Source: an uncultured Chloroflexia bacterium
GTDB lineage: Bacteria; Chloroflexota; Limnocylindria; Limnocylindrales; CSP1-4
Length of the DNA stretch: 64,000 nucleotides
Assembly: GCA_963752475.1 (NCBI GenBank)
Contig: CAVVYR010000006.1
Location: 192,001 to 256,000 of the forward strand
Direction: 5' to 3'
Positions 42,182 to 49,357 of this stretch are shown in pieces. The notes under the pieces are model-generated. The model saw only the letters and a program-made list of their open reading frames with translations. It made no database searches and was not told the origin of the DNA. Position numbers and translations under genes: made by a program. Each line of letters starts with the position of its first letter. Within the stretch, counting starts at the first letter, position 1.

Positions 42182-42907
42182 TTAGGCGTCGAGGCGGTAA
42201 CCCACGCCTCGGACGGCCACGGGCACCGGTGCGCCGGCGTTGACCAGCTTCTCGCGCAGTCGGGCGAGGTGTGGCTTGAGCCAGAGCGGATCGGGGTCGG
42301 GCACGTCCGGCCAGCCCGCGGCCAGCAGTTCCTCGTGCGGCACGACCTCACCCAGTCGCTCGACCATCGCTTGCAGCAAGCGGAACTCGGTCACCGTGGT
42401 GGGCAGGGGCGTGCCCTGCCAGCGGATCTCGTGGCGGCGTCGATCGAGCTCATAGCCCGACGGGTCACCCTTGCCGCGGTCGCCGCGGTTGCCGGCCGCC
42501 CGGCGCGAGACGGCCCGGACGCGTGCCAGGAGCTCGTCGGCACGGAAGGGCTTGCGCACGTAGTCGTCGGCGCCAAGGTCGAGCAGCTCCACCGTGGCGC
42601 CCTGATCACGCTCTCCCGAGACCACGATGATGGGCGTGTCGCTCACGTCACGGATGCGGCGGCAGACGCTTGCACCGTCCATGCCCGGCATGGCCAGGTC
42701 GAGCAACACGAGGTCGGGCTCGTCGTCGCCGAAGCGGCGCAGCGCCTCCTCGCCGTCGTAGGCCGCGATGATCCGGTGACCGGCCTGACCCAGCAGCGCG
42801 CCGAGCGCACCGACCATGGCCGGCTCGTCATCGACCACGAGGATCTTGAGCGGCTCCGCCGCCGGTGTCTCGTGTGCGTTCCCCGGCTCGTCTCCGAGCG
42901 TCGTCAT
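42182..42907 (-). CDS. OmpR/PhoB-family response regulator
   Basis: ILVVDDE, VLLDLAMPGMDG, GADDYVRKPF, wHTH ending VRGVGYR. Confidence 0.92.
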   Translation of the reverse strand: MTTLGDEPGNAHETPAAEPLKILVVDDEPAMVGALGALLGQAGHRIIAAYDGEEALRRFGDDEPDLVLLDLAMPGMDGASVCRRIRDVSDTPIIVVSGERDQGATVELLDLGADDYVRKPFRADELLARVRAVSRRAAGNRGDRGKGDPSGYELDRRRHEIRWQGTPLPTTVTEFRLLQAMVERLGEVVPHEELLAAGWPDVPDPDPLWLKPHLARLREKLVNAGAPVPVAVRGVGYRLDA

Positions 42908-43425
42908 CGTGTGGATCCCTTCATGTGCACGGCCGAGCGCAAGGCCTCGAACCGCTCGAGCCACGCCTCCAGTCGCTCCTCGTCCGCGAAGAGGACGAGG
43001 ATGGTGTTGTCGCCTGCGAGCGTGCCTTCCTGTTCGTCGAAGCTCGATTCGTCGATGGCCTGACCGATGGCGTTGGCTACCCCCGCCTCGGTCCCGAGCA
43101 GGAGCGTGAGCCCGGAACGGCCGATGTGGATCGGATAGTCCGCGAGCACGCGGCGCAGCCGCTCGTCGCTATCAGCCGACGGGATGGACGCCAGATCGGC
43201 GGGCCAAGCGTAGATGTGCTGCCCATCGTAAGCCACCTTCACGAGGCCCAGCTCCGTGATGTCCCGGCTCACGGTCGCCTGGGTCACATCGAACCCTCGG
43301 TCAGCGAGCAGGTCGACCAGCTGGTGTTGGCTGGAGACGGACTGCGCGGAGACGATCTCGCGCACGGTGTGCTGGCGCTCGCGCTTGAGGGCACGCGAAG
43401 ACATCGGTCGGGTGGTGGAGTCCAT
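42904..43425 (-). CDS. argR: Arginine repressor
   Basis: SQ..LV..L...GFDVTQATVSRDITELGLVKV; GTLAGDNTILV. Confidence 0.93.
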   Translation of the reverse strand: MDSTTRPMSSRALKRERQHTVREIVSAQSVSSQHQLVDLLADRGFDVTQATVSRDITELGLVKVAYDGQHIYAWPADLASIPSADSDERLRRVLADYPIHIGRSGLTLLLGTEAGVANAIGQAIDESSFDEQEGTLAGDNTILVLFADEERLEAWLERFEALRSAVHMKGSTR

Positions 43426-43558
43426 CGCTGGTCAGTATACAGCTGCACCGTATCCATATGCAGTCCTGAGCGTGCGTCGCATGAGTATCGCCGAGCAACA
43501 TGCATATATGAGTGCAGGGATTGTACTTTCGACTCGGAGCCTGCTACAGTCCGCCGCG

Positions 43559-43621
43559 ATGAAGCCTCACGGTACTCGCATGGCGATGCCCAAGGCCCCG
43601 CCGGGATGGGCGAGGGCCTGA
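43559..43621 (+). CDS. Putative 20-aa leader peptide MKPHGTRMAMPKAPPGWARA (Met codons 8 and 10)
   Basis: ATG 8 nt after a -10-like TACAGT (43545-43550), with TTGTAC 18 bp upstream; followed by a hairpin; architecture parallels the lys leader. Confidence 0.5.
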   Translation: MKPHGTRMAMPKAPPGWARA

Positions 43622-43665
43622 GGGAGCGCGCCCGAAACCAGCGCTCACCATCAGGACGGATCCCC

Positions 43666-43700
43666 GGGGCCGCGACCAACGAAGCGAAGGTCGCGGCCTT
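43666..43700 (+). terminator. Attenuator/terminator-like hairpin in the thrC-like leader
   Basis: GGGGCCGCGACC / GGTCGCGGCCTT 12-bp stem with a weak T tail; left arm overlaps the alternative pairing with 43594-43600. Confidence 0.55.
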
Positions 43701-43763
43701 CGTGATTCCTGAGCACGCCCCGGCTCCGGTGAGAGCCGGTCATGATCGAGAGGATCCATCCCC

Positions 43764-45116
43764 ATGACGCAGATCGCCATCCGCCCCGCTACCGAGACCA
43801 CCGACACCGCACCGGCCCCCATCGGGGGCAGCACGTCGACCACGACCGACCAGAGCTTCACTCCCGGCTACACCGGTCTGCGCTGTCGCGCCTGCGGTAC
43901 CGAGGCCGCTGACGGCCCGGTCTTCGTGTGCAGCCGATGCTTCGGTCCGCTCGAGCCGCAGTACGACCTCGACGGCATCCGACGGCGCCTCACCCGCGAG
44001 ATCATCGACGCTCGCGATCCCGATATCTGGCGCTGGGCGGAGCTGCTGCCGATCACCGAGCTCCCGACCACCGGCCTCCACGTGGGCCAGTCGCCGCTGA
44101 CCGATGCGCCCCGCCTCGCCGCGCGCATCGGCCTCGACAGGCTCTGGGTCAAGGACGACTCGCGCAACCCCTCGCTCTCGTTCAAGGACCGCCCGGTCTC
44201 GATCGCCGCGGCCCGGGCCAAGGCCTGGGGCTACCACACGCTCGCCTGTGCCTCGACGGGCAACCTCTCGGCCGCCGTGGCCGCGGCGGCTGCTGCTCAC
44301 GGACTGCGCTCGGTCGTCTTCATCCCCGCGGACCTGGAGCCGGCCAAGATCGCGCAGGCCCGCGCGCTCGGCGCCACCGTCGTTCGTGTCGACGGGCCCT
44401 ATGACGACGTCAACCGCCTGTGCCTGGAGCTGACCGACGAGCTCGAAGGATGGGCCGTCCTCAACGTCAACCTGCGCCCGTTCTACGCCGAGGGTTCCAA
44501 GACCATCGCCTTCGAGATCGCTCGGCAACTGGGCTGGCGAGCGCCTGATGCGCTGGTGGCGCCACTGGCCAGCGGGTCCATGTACACCAAGCTCGACCGC
44601 GGCTTCGCCGAGCTGACCGAGACGGGCCTGCTGCACGAGGCAGCGGTGCGCTTCTTCGGTGGCCAGGCCACCGGATGCGGCCCCATCGCCAGCGCCTTCG
44701 AGGCCGGTCAGGACGTCGTGCGCCCGGTCGAGAAGCCGGACACCATCGTGCGCTCGCTGGCCATCGGCTCCCCGGCTGACGGTGGCTACGCCATCAAGCA
44801 GGCTCGTGCGAGCGGCGCGGCCATCCTTGGCGTCGAAGACGAGGCCACCATCGACAGCATCCGCCTGTTGGCCGAGACCGAGGGCATCCTCACCGAGACC
44901 GCCGGCGGCGTGACCCTGGCCGCGCTGCGCCGAGCCATCGACGAGGGCCACATCCAGCGCCAAGAGGAGGCCGTGCTGGTCATCACCGGCAACGGCATCA
45001 AGACGCTCGATGTCCTTGCGAACGACGACGCCAACACGTTGCCCGAGCCCATCGCACCCAGCTTCGACGCCTTCGAGGAGTGGTGGCGGAACACGGCCGA
45101 GGAAGCGGCCGCTTGA
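43764..45116 (+). CDS. thrC: Threonine synthase-like PLP enzyme (possibly O-phosphohomoserine sulfhydrylase type)
   Basis: N-terminal Zn ribbon CRACG..CSRCFGPL, NPSLSFKDR, CASTGN, EGSKT, ETAGGVT, ITGNGIK. Confidence 0.8.
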   Translation: MTQIAIRPATETTDTAPAPIGGSTSTTTDQSFTPGYTGLRCRACGTEAADGPVFVCSRCFGPLEPQYDLDGIRRRLTREIIDARDPDIWRWAELLPITELPTTGLHVGQSPLTDAPRLAARIGLDRLWVKDDSRNPSLSFKDRPVSIAAARAKAWGYHTLACASTGNLSAAVAAAAAAHGLRSVVFIPADLEPAKIAQARALGATVVRVDGPYDDVNRLCLELTDELEGWAVLNVNLRPFYAEGSKTIAFEIARQLGWRAPDALVAPLASGSMYTKLDRGFAELTETGLLHEAAVRFFGGQATGCGPIASAFEAGQDVVRPVEKPDTIVRSLAIGSPADGGYAIKQARASGAAILGVEDEATIDSIRLLAETEGILTETAGGVTLAALRRAIDEGHIQRQEEAVLVITGNGIKTLDVLANDDANTLPEPIAPSFDAFEEWWRNTAEEAAA

Positions 45117-45198
45117 CTCCCGCCGGGGGCGGCGGCGCATCGGCGTCTCCCGAGCTGACTTGACGTCGCCGCCCGACTCCGCGACACTACGCCGCGGA

Positions 45199-45261
45199 AT
45201 GACTCATCTGTATCTTCTCAAGCCGAAGCCCACGCGGCCCTGCCTGGAGGCAGTGGCCTAG
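45199..45261 (+). CDS. Putative 20-aa leader peptide MTHLYLLKPKPTRPCLEAVA (Lys codons 8 and 10)
   Basis: Follows TTGACG-17bp-GACACT (45160-45188); precedes a terminator and the dap/lysA operon. Confidence 0.6.
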   Translation: MTHLYLLKPKPTRPCLEAVA

Positions 45262-45309
45262 ACGGCTTCGCTCGGGAAACCGACTCGGGGCCGCTAGGCC
45301 GGCTCCGAG

Positions 45310-45350
45310 GGCCGCAGACACCGACCAGGGTGACTGCGGTCTTTTTGTTT
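45310..45350 (+). terminator. Intrinsic terminator (attenuator) upstream of dapB
   Basis: GGCCGCAG-A-CACC / GGTG-A-CTGCGGTC stem followed by TTTTTGTTT. Confidence 0.8.
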
Positions 45351-45417
45351 GGCTCGGAGCCAGCTCAGCCGTCTCGTCGGATCGATCACCCAGCCACGAC
45401 GAGGAACCACACCTACG

Positions 45418-46170
45418 ATGCGAGCACTCATCACCGGCAGCGGCAACATGGGCCGTGCCATCGCCAGCGGCCTCGAGGCGCGCGGTGACGACGTGGCGGC
45501 CACGGCCGGCCGCGAGACCGGCTATCCCGCGGCCGCGGAGATCGGCGCCGTCGATGTCGCCTTCGAGTTCAGCCATGACTCCACCCTGCTCGAGCACATC
45601 GACCTGGGGCTCGCCACGGGCTGTCGTGCCTTCGTCGTGGGCACCACCGGCTGGAGTGCCGCTGACGAGATCGGCCAGGCCTTCGCGGCTCGCCTCAGCG
45701 AGAACGGTGCCCGTGCCGTGGTGGCTCCGACGTATAGCCTCGCCGCGGTCCTCTTCGGCGACATCAGCGAGTACGCTGCCCGCCTCTTCGGCGGCTTCGG
45801 CGACTATGACCCCTATCTCTTCGAGCAGCATCGCGCGGCCAAGGCCGACCGACCCTCTGGCACCGCCCTCGCGGTGGCCAACCGCCTGGTCCCACACCTC
45901 AAGGCGAAGCGCGAGGCGCGCCTGGCCACCGACGCGGGCGCGCCCGATCCCGAGGTGTTGGAGATCGTGGCCCTGCGAGCCGGCAGCCACCCGGGCATGC
46001 ACACCGTCGGGTTCGACGGCCCGGGTGAATCGTTGCAGGTCAAGGTCGAAGCCCGAGACCGCTCGGCCTACGTGGCCGGGGCCATCCTCAGCGCCGACTT
46101 CCTCATCGAGCAGCCAGACCGCACCGGCATCACCGCCTTCACCGACCTGGTCCACGAACGGACCGCCTGA
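45418..46170 (+). CDS. dapB: 4-hydroxy-tetrahydrodipicolinate reductase
   Basis: GSGNMG, VGTTGW, EQH..KADRPSGTA, LRAG..PGMH; adjacent to dapA. Confidence 0.88.
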   Translation: MRALITGSGNMGRAIASGLEARGDDVAATAGRETGYPAAAEIGAVDVAFEFSHDSTLLEHIDLGLATGCRAFVVGTTGWSAADEIGQAFAARLSENGARAVVAPTYSLAAVLFGDISEYAARLFGGFGDYDPYLFEQHRAAKADRPSGTALAVANRLVPHLKAKREARLATDAGAPDPEVLEIVALRAGSHPGMHTVGFDGPGESLQVKVEARDRSAYVAGAILSADFLIEQPDRTGITAFTDLVHERTA

Positions 46171-46205
46171 GCAAACGAAACGACATCACCGAAAGGGACG
46201 ATCCC

Positions 46206-47126
46206 ATGAGCAACCCCATCTTCAGCGGTGCCATCACCGCCCTCGTCACACCCATGAACGCCGACGGCTCGCTCGACGAGGAGACCCTCGTGGCCATGGT
46301 CGAGCGCCAGATCGACGCCGGCATCAACGGCCTCGTGCCGGTGGGCACGACCGGTGAGTCGCCGACGCTCTCGGCCGAGGAGGACCAGCGCGTCATCGAG
46401 CTGACCATCGAGACCGTGCGGCGCCGTGGCGTGGCCGAGACCACGCCCGTCATCGCCGGCACCGGCTCCAACGTGACCCAGCACGCCATCGAGTACACCG
46501 AAGCCGCCATGCGCCTCGGTGCCGATGCCGCACTGGTGGTCTCGCCCTACTACAACAAGCCCGACCAACGGATGCTCGAGGCCCACTACCGCACCGTGGC
46601 TGACGTGGGCCTGCCGGTGGTGGTCTACAACGTCCCCGGCCGCACTGGTGGCAACGTCGCTCCCGCCACCCTCATGCGCCTCGCCGAGCACGAGAACATC
46701 GTGGCTGTGAAGGAAGCCTCGGGCAACATGGAGCAGATCATGACCATCGTGCGTGATCGGCCCGACGGCTTCGCGGTCCTTTCCGGTGACGACAGCTGGA
46801 CCCTGCCGATCATGGGCGTGGGCGGCGATGGCGTCATCTCGGTGGCCTCCAACGAGGTGCCCCAGGTGATGGTCGAGCTCTGTGCCGCCGCGGCTCGTGG
46901 TGACATGCAGACCGCCTGGGATATCCACTACCGCTATCTGGAACTGATGCGGGTGAACTTCATCACCACCAGCCCGGCGCCGGTCAAGGCGGCCATGGCC
47001 GAGATGGGCCTCATCACCGACGCCCTGCGCATGCCCATGATGACCCTCGACGAGGCCAACCGGGCCCGCGTGCGCGAGGTCCTGGCCGACCTCGATCTGC
47101 TGCCAACGGCCGAGGCTGCTGCATGA
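46206..47126 (+). CDS. dapA: 4-hydroxy-tetrahydrodipicolinate synthase
   Basis: ALVTP, GTTGESPTL, PYYNKP, YNVPGRTG, VKEASG, SGDD. Confidence 0.95.
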   Translation: MSNPIFSGAITALVTPMNADGSLDEETLVAMVERQIDAGINGLVPVGTTGESPTLSAEEDQRVIELTIETVRRRGVAETTPVIAGTGSNVTQHAIEYTEAAMRLGADAALVVSPYYNKPDQRMLEAHYRTVADVGLPVVVYNVPGRTGGNVAPATLMRLAEHENIVAVKEASGNMEQIMTIVRDRPDGFAVLSGDDSWTLPIMGVGGDGVISVASNEVPQVMVELCAAAARGDMQTAWDIHYRYLELMRVNFITTSPAPVKAAMAEMGLITDALRMPMMTLDEANRARVREVLADLDLLPTAEAAA

Positions 47127-48092
47127 TCGCCGACGCCACGTCCGAGCCGAACGATCCGCGGGGGCCGGCAGCCACCGACTCCCACGTGGCTGCCGCCTCG
47201 TCTGCCCTGGCCGCGCGCATCGCCGCCCTTGACGCGGCCTGGGCCGCAAGCCGCCGGCTCCCCGAGTGAGGACCTCATCGCCGAGGTCCGCGTGGTCGTG
47301 GAGGAGCTGGTGGCGGCGCTCGAGGCCGGCGAGGTCCGTGCGGCCACGCCTGACGCCGGCATCGATGGTGGCTGGCGCGTGGACCCCTGGGTCAAGACCG
47401 GCATCCTCATGGGCTTCCGCCTGCCCGGCATGACCGACCTGCGTGATGGACCGATCCTGGCCGCGCGCGACAAGGCCGCCTACGGGCTGCTCGATCTGCT
47501 CGATAGCGACGCCGCGAACGCGGCCTCGGCCGCCGGGGCTCCGTGGCGCGTGGTGCCGGGCGGCTCAGCCGTCCGCAGCGGCGTGCACCTGGAGCCCGGC
47601 GTGACCATCATGCCGCCGTCCTACGCCAACATCGGTGCCTGGGTCGGCCGCGGCACGATGATCGACTCCCACGTGCTCGTGGGCTCGTGCGCCCAGATCG
47701 GGGAGGACGTGCACCTCTCGGCTGCGGTCCAGATCGGCGGTGTGCTCGAACCCGCCGGCGCACGTCCGGTCATCGTCGAGGATGGTGCCTTCGTCGGCGG
47801 TCAGGCGGGCCTCTACGAGGGCGTCACCATCAGTCGTGGTGCCGTCATCGGCGCGGGCACGATCGTCACCGGCCAGAGCCGGGTCGTCGACCTCGTCCAC
47901 GGCCGCGAGCTGCGCGGGACGGCTGAAGCGCCGGTGGTGATCCCGCCCGACGCGGTCGTCGTTCCGGGCACGCGCCCGGCCGGCTCCGATCTCGCACGTG
48001 AGCAGGGCCTGTCGGTCTCGGTGCCGCTCATCGTCAAGTACCGAGATGCCGGCACGAACGCACGGGTGGCTCTGGAGGACGCGCTGCGGTGA
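47123..48092 (+). CDS. dapD: Tetrahydrodipicolinate N-succinyltransferase; apparent +1 frameshift near 47245-47250
   Basis: WVKTGILMGFR, RVVPGG, MPPSYANIGA, GSCAQIG, GGVLEP; ATG overlapping the dapA stop runs in a different frame, total length 3n+1. Confidence 0.85.
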
Positions 48093-49357
48093 ACGCCGTT
48101 GCAGCGTCGATCGCGGTCGGGGCGACCGTCGCCGGCCTCGACCCCGCGGCGCTGACCGCGGAGTGGGGGAGCCCGCTCTTCGTCTACGACGCCGAGGTGC
48201 TGCGCTCACGGGCGGCCGCCCTGCAGGCTGCCCTGCCCCAGACGGCGGACGTGGCGTTCGCGTGCAAGGCCAACGGCTCGCCCGTGGTGCTGCGTACGCT
48301 GGCCCAGGCCGGGCTGGGCGTCGACGTCGCCTCCGGCGGTGAGCTGCGTGCAGCGCTGCGGGCCGGCTTCGATCCTGCCCACATCGTCTTCACGGGCCCG
48401 GGCAAGACCGATGCCGAGCTGGCCGAAGCACTCGATGCCGGTGTTGGAGCGCTGACGCTCGAGTCGCTCGAGGAGCTGGACGTCGTGGTCGGCTTCGCTG
48501 GGATCGCGAAGGCGGGCCAGGGCTTGATGCTGCGGCTGGCCACCGAAGGGGAGGCCGAAGGGCTGCCCATCATCAGCGCACCCGGCAACGTCAAGTTCGG
48601 GCTCACCGACGCCGAGGCCGAATCGGCCGTCGCCTCCATGCGCGAGGCTGGAGCGCTGGCGCCCGAGGGCCCCTTCGTGCTGCGTGGCTTCCACGCCTTC
48701 GGCGCCTCCAACGTTCGCGATGCCGCCGTGCTCGTCGAGGCTGCTGCCGACCTCGCCGCTCGCGCGGAGCCCATCGCCGCGCGTCATGGGATCGAGCTCG
48801 AGCTGCTCGACATGGGTGGCGGCCTCGGTATCCCCTATGCCCACGATGAGACGCCGCTCGACATCGCGGGACTCGGTGCGGGGCTGGCCGCGGAGATGCG
48901 CTCGTGGGCCGACCGCCCGGCCTTGCGTGAAGCCCGGTTGCTACTGGAGCCCGGCCGGTGGCTGGCCGGACCTGCCGGTGCCTACCTCTGCCGCGTCACG
49001 CGTACCAAGGAGCGTGGCGGTCGGGTCGTGGCCATCAGCGATGGCGGCATCCACCACCTGCTACGCCCGCGCCTGGTGGGCCAGGACCACCGCGTCGTGC
49101 CCGTCGGTGAGGCAGCCGCTCGTGAGGCGGACGTCGAGGTCGATCTCGTCGGGCCGCTCTGCACCGGTATCGACATCCTGGCCTCGGCCGTGCCCTCGCC
49201 GCGCCCCGCAGCAGGGGACCACTATGCCGTCCTCGATGCCGGCGCCTACGGCTACAGCGAGTCGATGCCGCTCTTCCTGGCGCACCCGACCCCGGCCGAG
49301 ATCGTCATCAGCGACGGCGCCGCCACTGTCTCCCGCGACCGCATCGAACCGGAGTGA
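48089..49357 (+). CDS. lysA: Diaminopimelate decarboxylase (group IV PLP decarboxylase)
   Basis: SPLFVYD, FACKAN, DVASGGEL, TGPGK, KFG, DMGGG, EPGR, GPLC, GAYG; operon context. Confidence 0.8.
   Translation: MNAVAASIAVGATVAGLDPAALTAEWGSPLFVYDAEVLRSRAAALQAALPQTADVAFACKANGSPVVLRTLAQAGLGVDVASGGELRAALRAGFDPAHIVFTGPGKTDAELAEALDAGVGALTLESLEELDVVVGFAGIAKAGQGLMLRLATEGEAEGLPIISAPGNVKFGLTDAEAESAVASMREAGALAPEGPFVLRGFHAFGASNVRDAAVLVEAAADLAARAEPIAARHGIELELLDMGGGLGIPYAHDETPLDIAGLGAGLAAEMRSWADRPALREARLLLEPGRWLAGPAGAYLCRVTRTKERGGRVVAISDGGIHHLLRPRLVGQDHRVVPVGEAAAREADVEVDLVGPLCTGIDILASAVPSPRPAAGDHYAVLDAGAYGYSESMPLFLAHPTPAEIVISDGAATVSRDRIEPE

Follow-up and report, generated by a model that had tools for sequence, protein, structure and literature searches.

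The DNA analyzed here is a 64,000-nucleotide (nt) stretch from an uncultured Chloroflexia bacterium of the class Limnocylindria (order Limnocylindrales, CSP1-4; assembly GCA_963752475.1, contig CAVVYR010000006.1, positions 192,001 to 256,000), referred to below as the window. It contains two short upstream open reading frames (uORFs), one with a Met leader ahead of a gene for a threonine synthase (thrC)-like enzyme, and one with a Lys leader ahead of the lysine operon dapB-dapA-dapD-lysA. We consider it probable, with good confidence, that each of these elements is a ribosome-mediated (leader-peptide) transcription attenuator, and that the two are paralogues belonging to a scaffold that serves Lys, Met and Cys pathways in the Limnocylindria. 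Each element has a short open reading frame (ORF) with codons for the amino acid of the pathway, a terminator located before the structural genes, and an antiterminator that is exclusive of the terminator. The coordinates of all parts are given in Table 1.

The design of the two window leaders was found to be largely as reported in a preliminary description of this DNA. Both uORFs, read directly, are exactly 20 codons in length, and the residue relevant to the pathway is present at codons 8 and 10 (Met/Met and Lys/Lys). Each uORF starts just after a -10-like hexamer, with the TACAGT of the Met leader 8 nt and the GACACT of the Lys leader 10 nt upstream of the ATG, and a TTG-type -35 element is located 17 to 18 nt further upstream. 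It had also been noted that a 7 to 8 nt antiterminator arm is placed 14 nt past the first base of codon 8, and this arm indeed begins at uORF nt 36 in both leaders. In the Met leader this arm, region 1 (GGCCCCG), doubles as the 5′ arm of a hairpin (P1) inside the uORF. Two further shared details were of narrower validity: the motif CGCCGCG is present in both window spacers but varies among orthologues, and P11, P14, A18 and A20, although common to both window peptides, are not all general across the genus, because in the Lys-uORF orthologues P11 varies and A20 alternates with V, and in the Met-uORF orthologues A18 and A20 vary. The view that the two leaders have little else in common as nucleotide sequences had to be abandoned: they align with invariant cores, and a model built from either type also detects the other. 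The two window leaders are, judged from these alignments, best regarded as paralogues of one scaffold and not as independent look-alikes.

In the mechanism that we infer, transcription would begin on the uORF start codon or only a few bases away from it. The two sensor codons (Lys for dapB-dapA-dapD-lysA, Met for the thrC-like gene) lie 6 to 14 nt upstream of region 1, which has two alternative partners. By local pairing with the uORF's 3′ half, region 1 can form P1 and leave the terminator free to form; by pairing over a longer distance with the terminator's 5′ arm, at its base, it can give the antiterminator. Under scarcity of the cognate aminoacyl-tRNA, the leading ribosome would stall at the sensor near the 5′ end of the transcript and block further loading; the bare 3′ half of the uORF would then form a long collinear rod with the segment before and including the terminator base, and RNA polymerase would continue into the biosynthetic genes. 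When the aminoacyl-tRNA is plentiful, ribosome traffic through nt 36 to 63 to the stop codon would prevent formation of the rod, and, with the 3′ half occupied or P1 re-formed, the terminator would form and transcription would stop.

The proposal of a lineage-wide, near-leaderless attenuator design that is re-used for different amino acids was supported by the presence of homologous leaders in 68 of 151 genomes of the class. A covariance model made from the Met leaders of the genus only (R1) matched leaders in other genera that have the sensors Met-Cys-Met, Met-Ala-Met, Met-Met-Ser-Met and Cys-x-Cys, and also Lys. A 43-sequence alignment of all leader types contained two invariant, mutually complementary cores: region 1 has GGCCC, and the base of the terminator has GGGCC(G)C. 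The covariance model derived from this alignment (R2) gave the matches in the 68 genomes, with one to three copies in each. Two of these genomes (G182 and G216) are flagged as unpublished; without them the count is 66 of 149, and no other result depends on them. Broken down by family, R2 matched 47 of 69 genomes in the family of the window; two other families gave 19 of 52 and 1 of 21, and neither the small-genome family (0 of 7 genomes) nor a fifth one (0 of 1) had a match. Among 135 Chloroflexota genomes outside the class no convincing match was obtained with the model, and the single weak match there, at the end of a coding region, was rejected.

A pattern for the Lys-leader core, in which the outer two Lys codons were fixed and the middle codon was free, found at least 119 matching records in a species-level genome collection, nearly all of them Chloroflexota metagenome-assembled genomes, with titles that, among the matches listed, read Limnocylindria, Limnocylindrales or 'uncultured Chloroflexia'. 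Under the rule applied, an ATG-started uORF was present at 74 of the 80 Lys loci that were fetched, with lengths of 18 to 26 codons, and the commonest form (42 of 74) had 26 codons and the first Lys at codon 11. The blueprint of the preliminary description, 20 codons with the sensor at positions 8 and 10, holds for the genus but not beyond it, where uORFs have 16 to 36 codons and often a K-K-K sensor, and where three sensor codons are present in most Lys leaders. The feature that is constant in the family is the distance from the sensor to the antiterminator arm, rather than the codon numbers 8 and 10 or the length of 20 codons.

The identity of the sensor was compared with that of the downstream gene in 100 R2 matches, by taking as the sensor the three codons at -16 to -8 relative to GGCCC (in the Met leaders of the genus, a 2-nt deletion places the start of the sensor at -14). 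The sensor types among these parsed leaders were K, M and C only. The first homologous downstream gene was DapB for all 39 K-type sensors. For the 49 M-type sensors it was MetY in 39 cases, ThrC-like in 5, OsmC-like in 2, and an unknown protein of 183 amino acids in 2, with none found in 1; for the 10 C-type sensors it was CysE in 7, CysK/CBS-like in 1 and MetY in 1 (the sensor there being Cys-Ile-Cys-Met), again with none in 1. Two of the 100 leaders could not be classified by the parsing rule, one of which is a K-type leader before DapB, and K-K-K was present in 20 of 40 K-type sensors. Thus, in the 100 parsed leaders there was no M or C leader before dapB and no K leader before a sulfur gene. 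These downstream identities were assigned by NCBIfam, in which MetY scored over the cut-off, CysE scored over the EpsC cut-off and below the cysE cut-off, and DapB scored below its cut-off.

Two groups of M-type leaders had distinctive features. In leaders L203, L227, L220 and L223 the first downstream gene encodes an OsmC-related protein or a protein of 183 to 198 residues without an NCBIfam match, and these proteins are candidates for unrecognized roles in sulfur amino-acid metabolism. In four leaders of the MMSM type located before metY (L209, L210, L215 and L216), the sensor Met codons are the only in-frame ATGs (ORF MMSMPGRPRSAEDGV); the nearest -10-like hexamer of MMSM-type leaders is about 30 nt upstream, and the untranslated leader is apparently about 20 nt in length. 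These members seem not to be leaderless, and the first Met of the sensor seems to be the initiator.

A start codon located 3 to 15 nt after a -35/-10-like pair, with a frame open through the sensor, was found in the sensor frame of 80 of the 100 leaders and in 0 of 100 for each of the other frames. In 75 of these 80 leaders with a recognized promoter, the distance from the -10-like hexamer to the start codon was 6 to 10 nt, which fits a predicted transcript that starts at, or up to about 4 bases before, the start codon. The RNA core 3′ of the sensor is read in different frames by the subtypes (as RPRR, APPG or RPC); therefore, the sensor is conserved as codons and the remainder as RNA. The frame and the in-frame changes in length predict that the uORF is translated and that the sensor triplets are read as codons. 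An alternative is that a ligand- or protein-binding riboregulator, such as an unrecognized riboswitch, chooses between terminator and antiterminator, and that the small ORF is incidental. Such an arrangement would account for nucleotide conservation in the 3′ half of the leader that far exceeds the need of a 20-residue peptide, and riboswitch control is usual for Lys and Met pathways in other phyla. However, one conserved core serves three pathways, and it is in three in-frame codons that they differ; the restriction of start codons to the sensor frame also argues against a riboregulator, as does the result of an Rfam search with E values up to 10, which found no family in 42500-46500 and only a weak, unrelated match inside dapA. 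We consider a riboregulator with an incidental ORF very unlikely.

The conservation of the two competing helices was evaluated at the level of the family. In 101 sequences aligned with the covariance model, the six basal pairs of the terminator were 98.2% canonical, and four of them had changed on both sides. The eight pairs of the antiterminator, which was not part of the covariance model used for the alignment, were likewise 98.2% canonical, and the 43-sequence alignment gave the same picture, with 98 to 99% of cells canonical over the two data sets. One antiterminator pair, 44:176, covaried strongly and was CG in 54 sequences, UA in 18, UG in 14, AU in 1, GC in 1, and other in 9. The terminator and the antiterminator share four alignment columns and are therefore mutually exclusive. 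Hairpin P1 was less regular, with 86 to 93% of cells paired. When a ribosome was modeled on the first sensor codon, the nascent leader was predicted to fold as one rod, with the antiterminator core present in 91 of 96 leaders; with the modeled ribosome at the sensor, at least four nested pairs were formed by the 3′ half of the uORF in 86 of 96. In the full leader, the median penalty for the antiterminator was 8.5 kcal/mol with no ribosome and 3.3 kcal/mol with a ribosome at the sensor. In the window, both leaders were predicted to be more stable than shuffled sequences (z = -3.2 for the Met leader and -3.7 for the Lys leader), and the Lys terminator is the top-scoring hairpin of the genome in a hairpin finder.

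Several results weigh against attenuation with induction by starvation. The shuffle controls are inflated by relatedness, and controls with slid partners, in which about 37 to 55% were paired, are fairer. The antiterminator penalty with a ribosome on the stop codon was 4.8 kcal/mol, near the sensor value; equilibrium folding gave the Met terminator in every ribosome state; and the antiterminator was already favored on truncated Met transcripts with no ribosome (median 0.98). If a ribosome rested on the stop codon, the 3′ arm of P1 would be covered and region 1 free, possibly favoring read-through at plenty. The U-tract of the Met-leader terminator is poor (TTCGTGATT), the window leaders hold only two sensor codons, and there is hardly any covariation within the genus because the sequences are too conserved. 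RNA libraries yielded seven short contigs, and single 151-nt pieces cover parts of both leaders, with one contig (43654-43804) spanning the Met terminator into the thrC-like gene and another (45211-45361) in the Lys leader; these contigs reveal neither ends, strand nor level. Because equilibrium folding separates the states poorly, the proposed direction of switching is derived from pathway logic and from analogy.

The effect of a ribosome on the stop codon is also the basis for a different view, that the uORFs are translated with opposite or non-specific logic, such that translation to the stop promotes read-through and the element reports general translation capacity or shuts the genes off on starvation. 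This could suit a true threonine synthase that competes with methionine synthesis, and the gene behind the Met leader does score as thrC; furthermore, the antiterminator probability in truncated transcripts with a stop-bound ribosome was 0.87 (Lys) and 0.37 (Met). However, the identity of the sensor tracks biosynthesis of the same amino acid (dapB, metY, cysE), for which induction by starvation is the only sensible logic. In addition, the genome has a separate, better-scoring thrC, and the antiterminator penalty was lowest with the ribosome at the sensor. Opposite logic is, in our estimation, unlikely, and read-through upon stalling at the sensor remains the preferred direction.

The preliminary description had named absence of the pattern from orthologous leaders as a ground for doubt; on the contrary, the uORF frame and length are kept across the genus. 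The Lys leader DNA is present in one copy each in 43 of 49 genus genomes, and the thrC-like gene is present in 42 of 49. At the 30 genus loci read, the Lys uORF always starts with ATG and has 20 codons in 28 loci and 21 in 2; Lys-x-Lys is at codons 8 and 10 in 29 loci and at codons 9 and 11 in 1, and three loci have K-K-K. The TTGAC/TTGC and.A...T hexamers of the Lys promoter are kept as well, 8 to 10 nt before the ATG. In all 30 Met loci the distance from the uORF start codon (29 ATG and 1 GTG) to the first sensor position is exactly 7 codons; Met occupies codon 10 in every locus and codon 8 in 28, and the length is 20 codons in 27. The 30 orthologous Met loci have equivalent TTG.../.A...T pairs 6 to 9 nt upstream of the uORF start; a generic sigma-70 promoter scan returned nothing, and therefore the Met-leader promoter rests on conservation and not on a consensus score. 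A simple terminator scan likewise called nothing, the Met terminator included. The P1 hairpin of the Met leader has 8 pairs, of which one (alignment pair 42:55) has a two-sided change among the 30 genus sequences. Many GC-rich alternative helices arise by chance in genus-level alignments.

The genus alignments also bear on the peptide itself. Codons 2 to 7 of the uORFs are freely variable, and the 3′ halves are near-invariant as nucleotides. One Met-uORF orthologue stops at codon 12, from which it follows that the peptide can do without its C-terminal half. The K-x-K of the Lys uORF resembles the +X+ macrolide arrest motif, and the uORFs could in principle encode small functional or drug-responsive arrest peptides. 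We regard this as highly improbable, since the residues beyond the sensor vary freely, the C-terminal half is not only truncated in the orthologue just mentioned but is read in different frames by the subtypes, the downstream genes are for biosynthesis rather than resistance, and a +X+ motif is absent from the M and C versions.

Additional pairings were observed 3′ of, or overlapping, the terminators. In the Met leaders of the genus (43683-43705 in the window), CGAAGG at the end of the terminator loop pairs with CCTTCG in the conserved tail, forming an alternative hairpin that excludes the 3′ arm of the terminator; of its 8 pairs, 3 have two-sided changes. This hairpin might lock a read-through conformation. 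The P1 loop holds a Shine-Dalgarno-like GGAGG in family members such as L201, L219, L097 and L103, and many leaders of the M, C and K types have a complementary CCTCC or CTCCG located 3′ of the U-tract, which hints at a second, translational layer of anti-Shine-Dalgarno and anti-anti-Shine-Dalgarno pairing. In the Lys leader of the window, the partner of the post-terminator segment GGCTCGGAGCC is instead GGCTCCGAG (45300-45308). One Lys leader (L075, in genome G008) has, in place of the usual U-tract, the tail ATCGTGATTCCTGGAGC, which resembles the genus Met-leader tail TTCGTGATTCCTGAGC and is a further sign that the Lys and Met leader types share ancestry or exchange parts.

In the genome of the window, both covariance models and three scripted scans found only the two leaders. 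A scan for uORFs with the same residue at codons 8 and 10, preceded by -35/-10 elements and located before a gene, as had been suggested, returned these two and one GTG-started chance match; this M-P-M ORF, before a gene for a sugar-binding protein, was rejected as a family member. Two further candidates in this genome were rejected as coding-region matches.

Ribosome-mediated attenuation is a textbook mechanism, of which the classical Escherichia coli cases are trpL, hisL and thrL. A lysine-cluster leader ORF with tandem Lys codons that acts by attenuation was reportedly found in Thermus thermophilus (by Tsubouchi and coworkers, in the Journal of Biological Chemistry in 2005); it is said to belong to the aminoadipate pathway, in another phylum, and to be an unrelated leader. 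The Limnocylindria leaders resemble the L-box (lysine) and SAM riboswitches in that termination would occur prematurely ahead of Lys and Met genes, but they differ in that the window leaders match no Rfam family and in that the proposed sensor is a translating ribosome and not a ligand pocket. An attenuator with a uORF has also been described for ilvB1 of Mycobacterium tuberculosis, according to the portions of that report used here (PMC13236596). With these classical attenuators (trpL, hisL, thrL, ilvB1) the Limnocylindria leaders share an ORF with codons of the regulated amino acid, a terminator and an exclusive antiterminator, and the position of the ribosome is presumed to be the selector. 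They differ in that the start codon is at or near the predicted 5′ end of the transcript and has no Shine-Dalgarno sequence, that there are only two to three sensor codons, that it is the 5′ arm and not the 3′ arm of the first hairpin that enters the antiterminator, which extends into a long collinear rod, and that one scaffold has diversified into three specificities, Lys, Met and Cys.

The 'Cys ribulon' of mycobacteria consists of polycysteine leaderless short ORFs, and regulation is translational in the characterized case; further such leaderless short-ORF regulons were predicted in the same work (Canestrari et al., 10.1101/834739, as far as the sections relied upon here extend). Both systems have few sensor codons, several operons per amino acid, and a leaderless sensory short ORF that is first in the transcript, which for the Limnocylindria leaders is a prediction. 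As presented in those sections, the Cys ribulon acts by unmasking a ribosome-binding site and its short ORFs arose independently at each locus, whereas the Limnocylindria leaders conserve a terminator/antiterminator pair and are homologous; they are also from a different phylum and add Lys and Met versions. The consecutive Cys codons and sequestered ribosome-binding site of the Cys ribulon are absent from the Lys and Met leaders of the window, which bear terminators; in other genera there are related leaders of the Cys type (C-x-C, CCC). The trpL/rnTrpL attenuator of Sinorhizobium meliloti is similar in that a leaderless leader-peptide ORF, with its AUG at the 5′ end, opens a transcription attenuator; as far as the excerpted source goes (PMC10117765), it is Trp-specific, at a single locus, in an alphaproteobacterium, and a different RNA. 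For the Actinobacteria, the cited part of Seliverstov 2005 reports no RNA elements before Lys or Met operons (PMC1262725).

A literature search, which did not cover supplements, found neither this leader family nor its Lys member described, and likewise no account of homologous attenuators that differ in sensor codons; among the papers listed, it found nothing that links the Limnocylindria with attenuators, leader peptides, leaderless genes or riboswitches. The Lys and Met specificity, the leaderless layout and the codon-swapped paralogous scaffold thus appear to be undescribed, and the principle is that of known attenuation.

With moderate confidence, we propose that one ancestral leaderless scaffold was duplicated and re-targeted by sensor-codon swaps only, giving a Lys-dapB, Met-metY/thrC-like and Cys-cysE/cysK regulon that replaces the riboswitches used elsewhere. 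If this is true, the family is a natural codon-swap experiment in which the specificity of attenuation is fully modular, and the zinc-ribbon thrC paralogue is marked as an enzyme of the methionine pathway, perhaps a MetM-like homocysteine synthase. Homologous attenuators that differ essentially in sensor codons are rare, and they would make modularity directly testable and provide a scaffold usable for synthetic amino-acid sensors. Lysine, methionine and cysteine synthesis would be controlled across a whole class without the riboswitches, T-boxes or repressors known elsewhere, and leaderless sensory short ORFs would extend past mycobacteria and past cysteine. Membership in the regulon would provide a functional clue for the zinc-ribbon thrC paralogue, the OsmC-like protein and the unknown 183-residue protein, and the family flags unannotated short ORFs that gene callers have overlooked in metagenome-assembled genomes.

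Table 1. Positions in the window of the parts of the two leaders and of the neighboring genes.
Feature	Position	Strand	Details
argR	42904-43425	-	separated from the Met-leader promoter by 43425-43520
Met-leader promoter-like elements	43521-43550	+	-35 TTGTAC 43521-43526, 18-nt spacer, -10 TACAGT 43545-43550
Met uORF	43559-43621	+	ATG 43559, 20 codons, TGA 43619-43621, peptide MKPHGTRMAMPKAPPGWARA
Met-uORF sensor codons	43580-43582, 43586-43588	+	ATG (codon 8), ATG (codon 10); read from sequence
Met hairpin P1, inside uORF	43594-43618	+	region 1 GGCCCCG 43594-43600 pairs with AGGGCC 43613-43618
Met region 3	43665-43671	+	CGGGGCC, complementary to region 1
Met terminator stem	43666-43677 / 43689-43698	+	GGGGCCGCGACC / GGTCGCGGCC; 12 pairs kept in 30 sequences
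Met terminator tail	43699-43707	+	TTCGTGATT, poor U-tract
thrC-like pyridoxal phosphate enzyme	43764-45116	+	TIGR00260 ~247-248 bits (over cut-off), PF00291; preceded by Met leader
Lys-leader promoter-like elements	45160-45188	+	-35 TTGACG 45160-45165, 17-nt spacer, -10 GACACT 45183-45188
Lys uORF	45199-45261	+	ATG 45199, 20 codons, TAG 45259-45261, peptide MTHLYLLKPKPTRPCLEAVA
Lys-uORF sensor codons	45220-45222, 45226-45228	+	AAG (codon 8), AAG (codon 10); read from sequence
Lys region 1, antiterminator 5′ arm	45234-45241	+	GCGGCCCT
Lys hairpin P1, inside uORF	45236-45258	+	from folding and alignment
Lys region 3	45308-45315	+	AGGGCCGC, complementary to region 1
Lys terminator stem	45310-45322 / 45329-45341	+	GGCCGCAGACACC / GGTGACTGCGGTC; GC-rich, covariation in the family
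Lys terminator U-tract	45340-45350	+	TCTTTTTGTTT, strong
Conserved post-terminator segment, Lys leader	45351-45361	+	GGCTCGGAGCC
Lysine operon dapB-dapA-dapD-lysA	45418-49357	+	downstream of Lys leader
dapB	45418-46170	+	DapB_C 75.5 bits (over threshold); TIGR00036 94.5 bits (below cut-off 122)
dapA	46206-47126	+	family score over cut-off
dapD	47229-48092	+	family score over cut-off
lysA	48089-49357	+	263 bits, below cut-off 297.9

The genome has a G+C content of 68%. By its two scores in Table 1, the product of dapB is predicted to be a divergent DapB. The thrC-like protein has an N-terminal Cys-rich stretch that is zinc-ribbon-like, and its closest solved structures are threonine synthases. 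The second thrC, elsewhere in the genome, scores 321 bits compared to 248 bits for the thrC-like gene, and the metY of this genome, which is downstream of a metA-like gene, lacks its own leader. Given that a better-scoring thrC is present and that, in sister genera, Met leaders from this family control metY, the evidence suggests a role of the thrC-like gene in methionine synthesis. A ThrC homologue of Streptomyces, MetM, is given as a homocysteine synthase in the part of GapMind 2026 cited here (PMC13759103).

Between argR and the Met-leader promoter (43425-43520) there are AT-rich palindromic motifs (TATACAG, TATGCA and TGCATAT) that recur in orthologous loci and may be ArgR operators. They abut the -35 element of the Met leader, and therefore the thrC-like gene might also answer to ArgR.

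Two other ORFs of this genome were considered. A His-rich ORF located before a MetRS-like gene was rejected as a leader. The end of this ORF (HHYHHHH ... HLHAMHSPFHLRPHH) is at G000:C7:380700-380850, a terminator-like hairpin follows, and the MetRS-like gene just downstream has a degenerate HIGH motif; the ORF end is probably the tail of a larger ORF encoding a metal-binding protein. On the same contig as the window but outside of it (278930-279275), ilvB is preceded by a Shine-Dalgarno-led ORF of 61 codons, which has a run rich in Ile, Leu and Val with unusually AT-rich codons, and then by a terminator with a U-tract. For ilvB, this genome uses a leader of another, more classical design.

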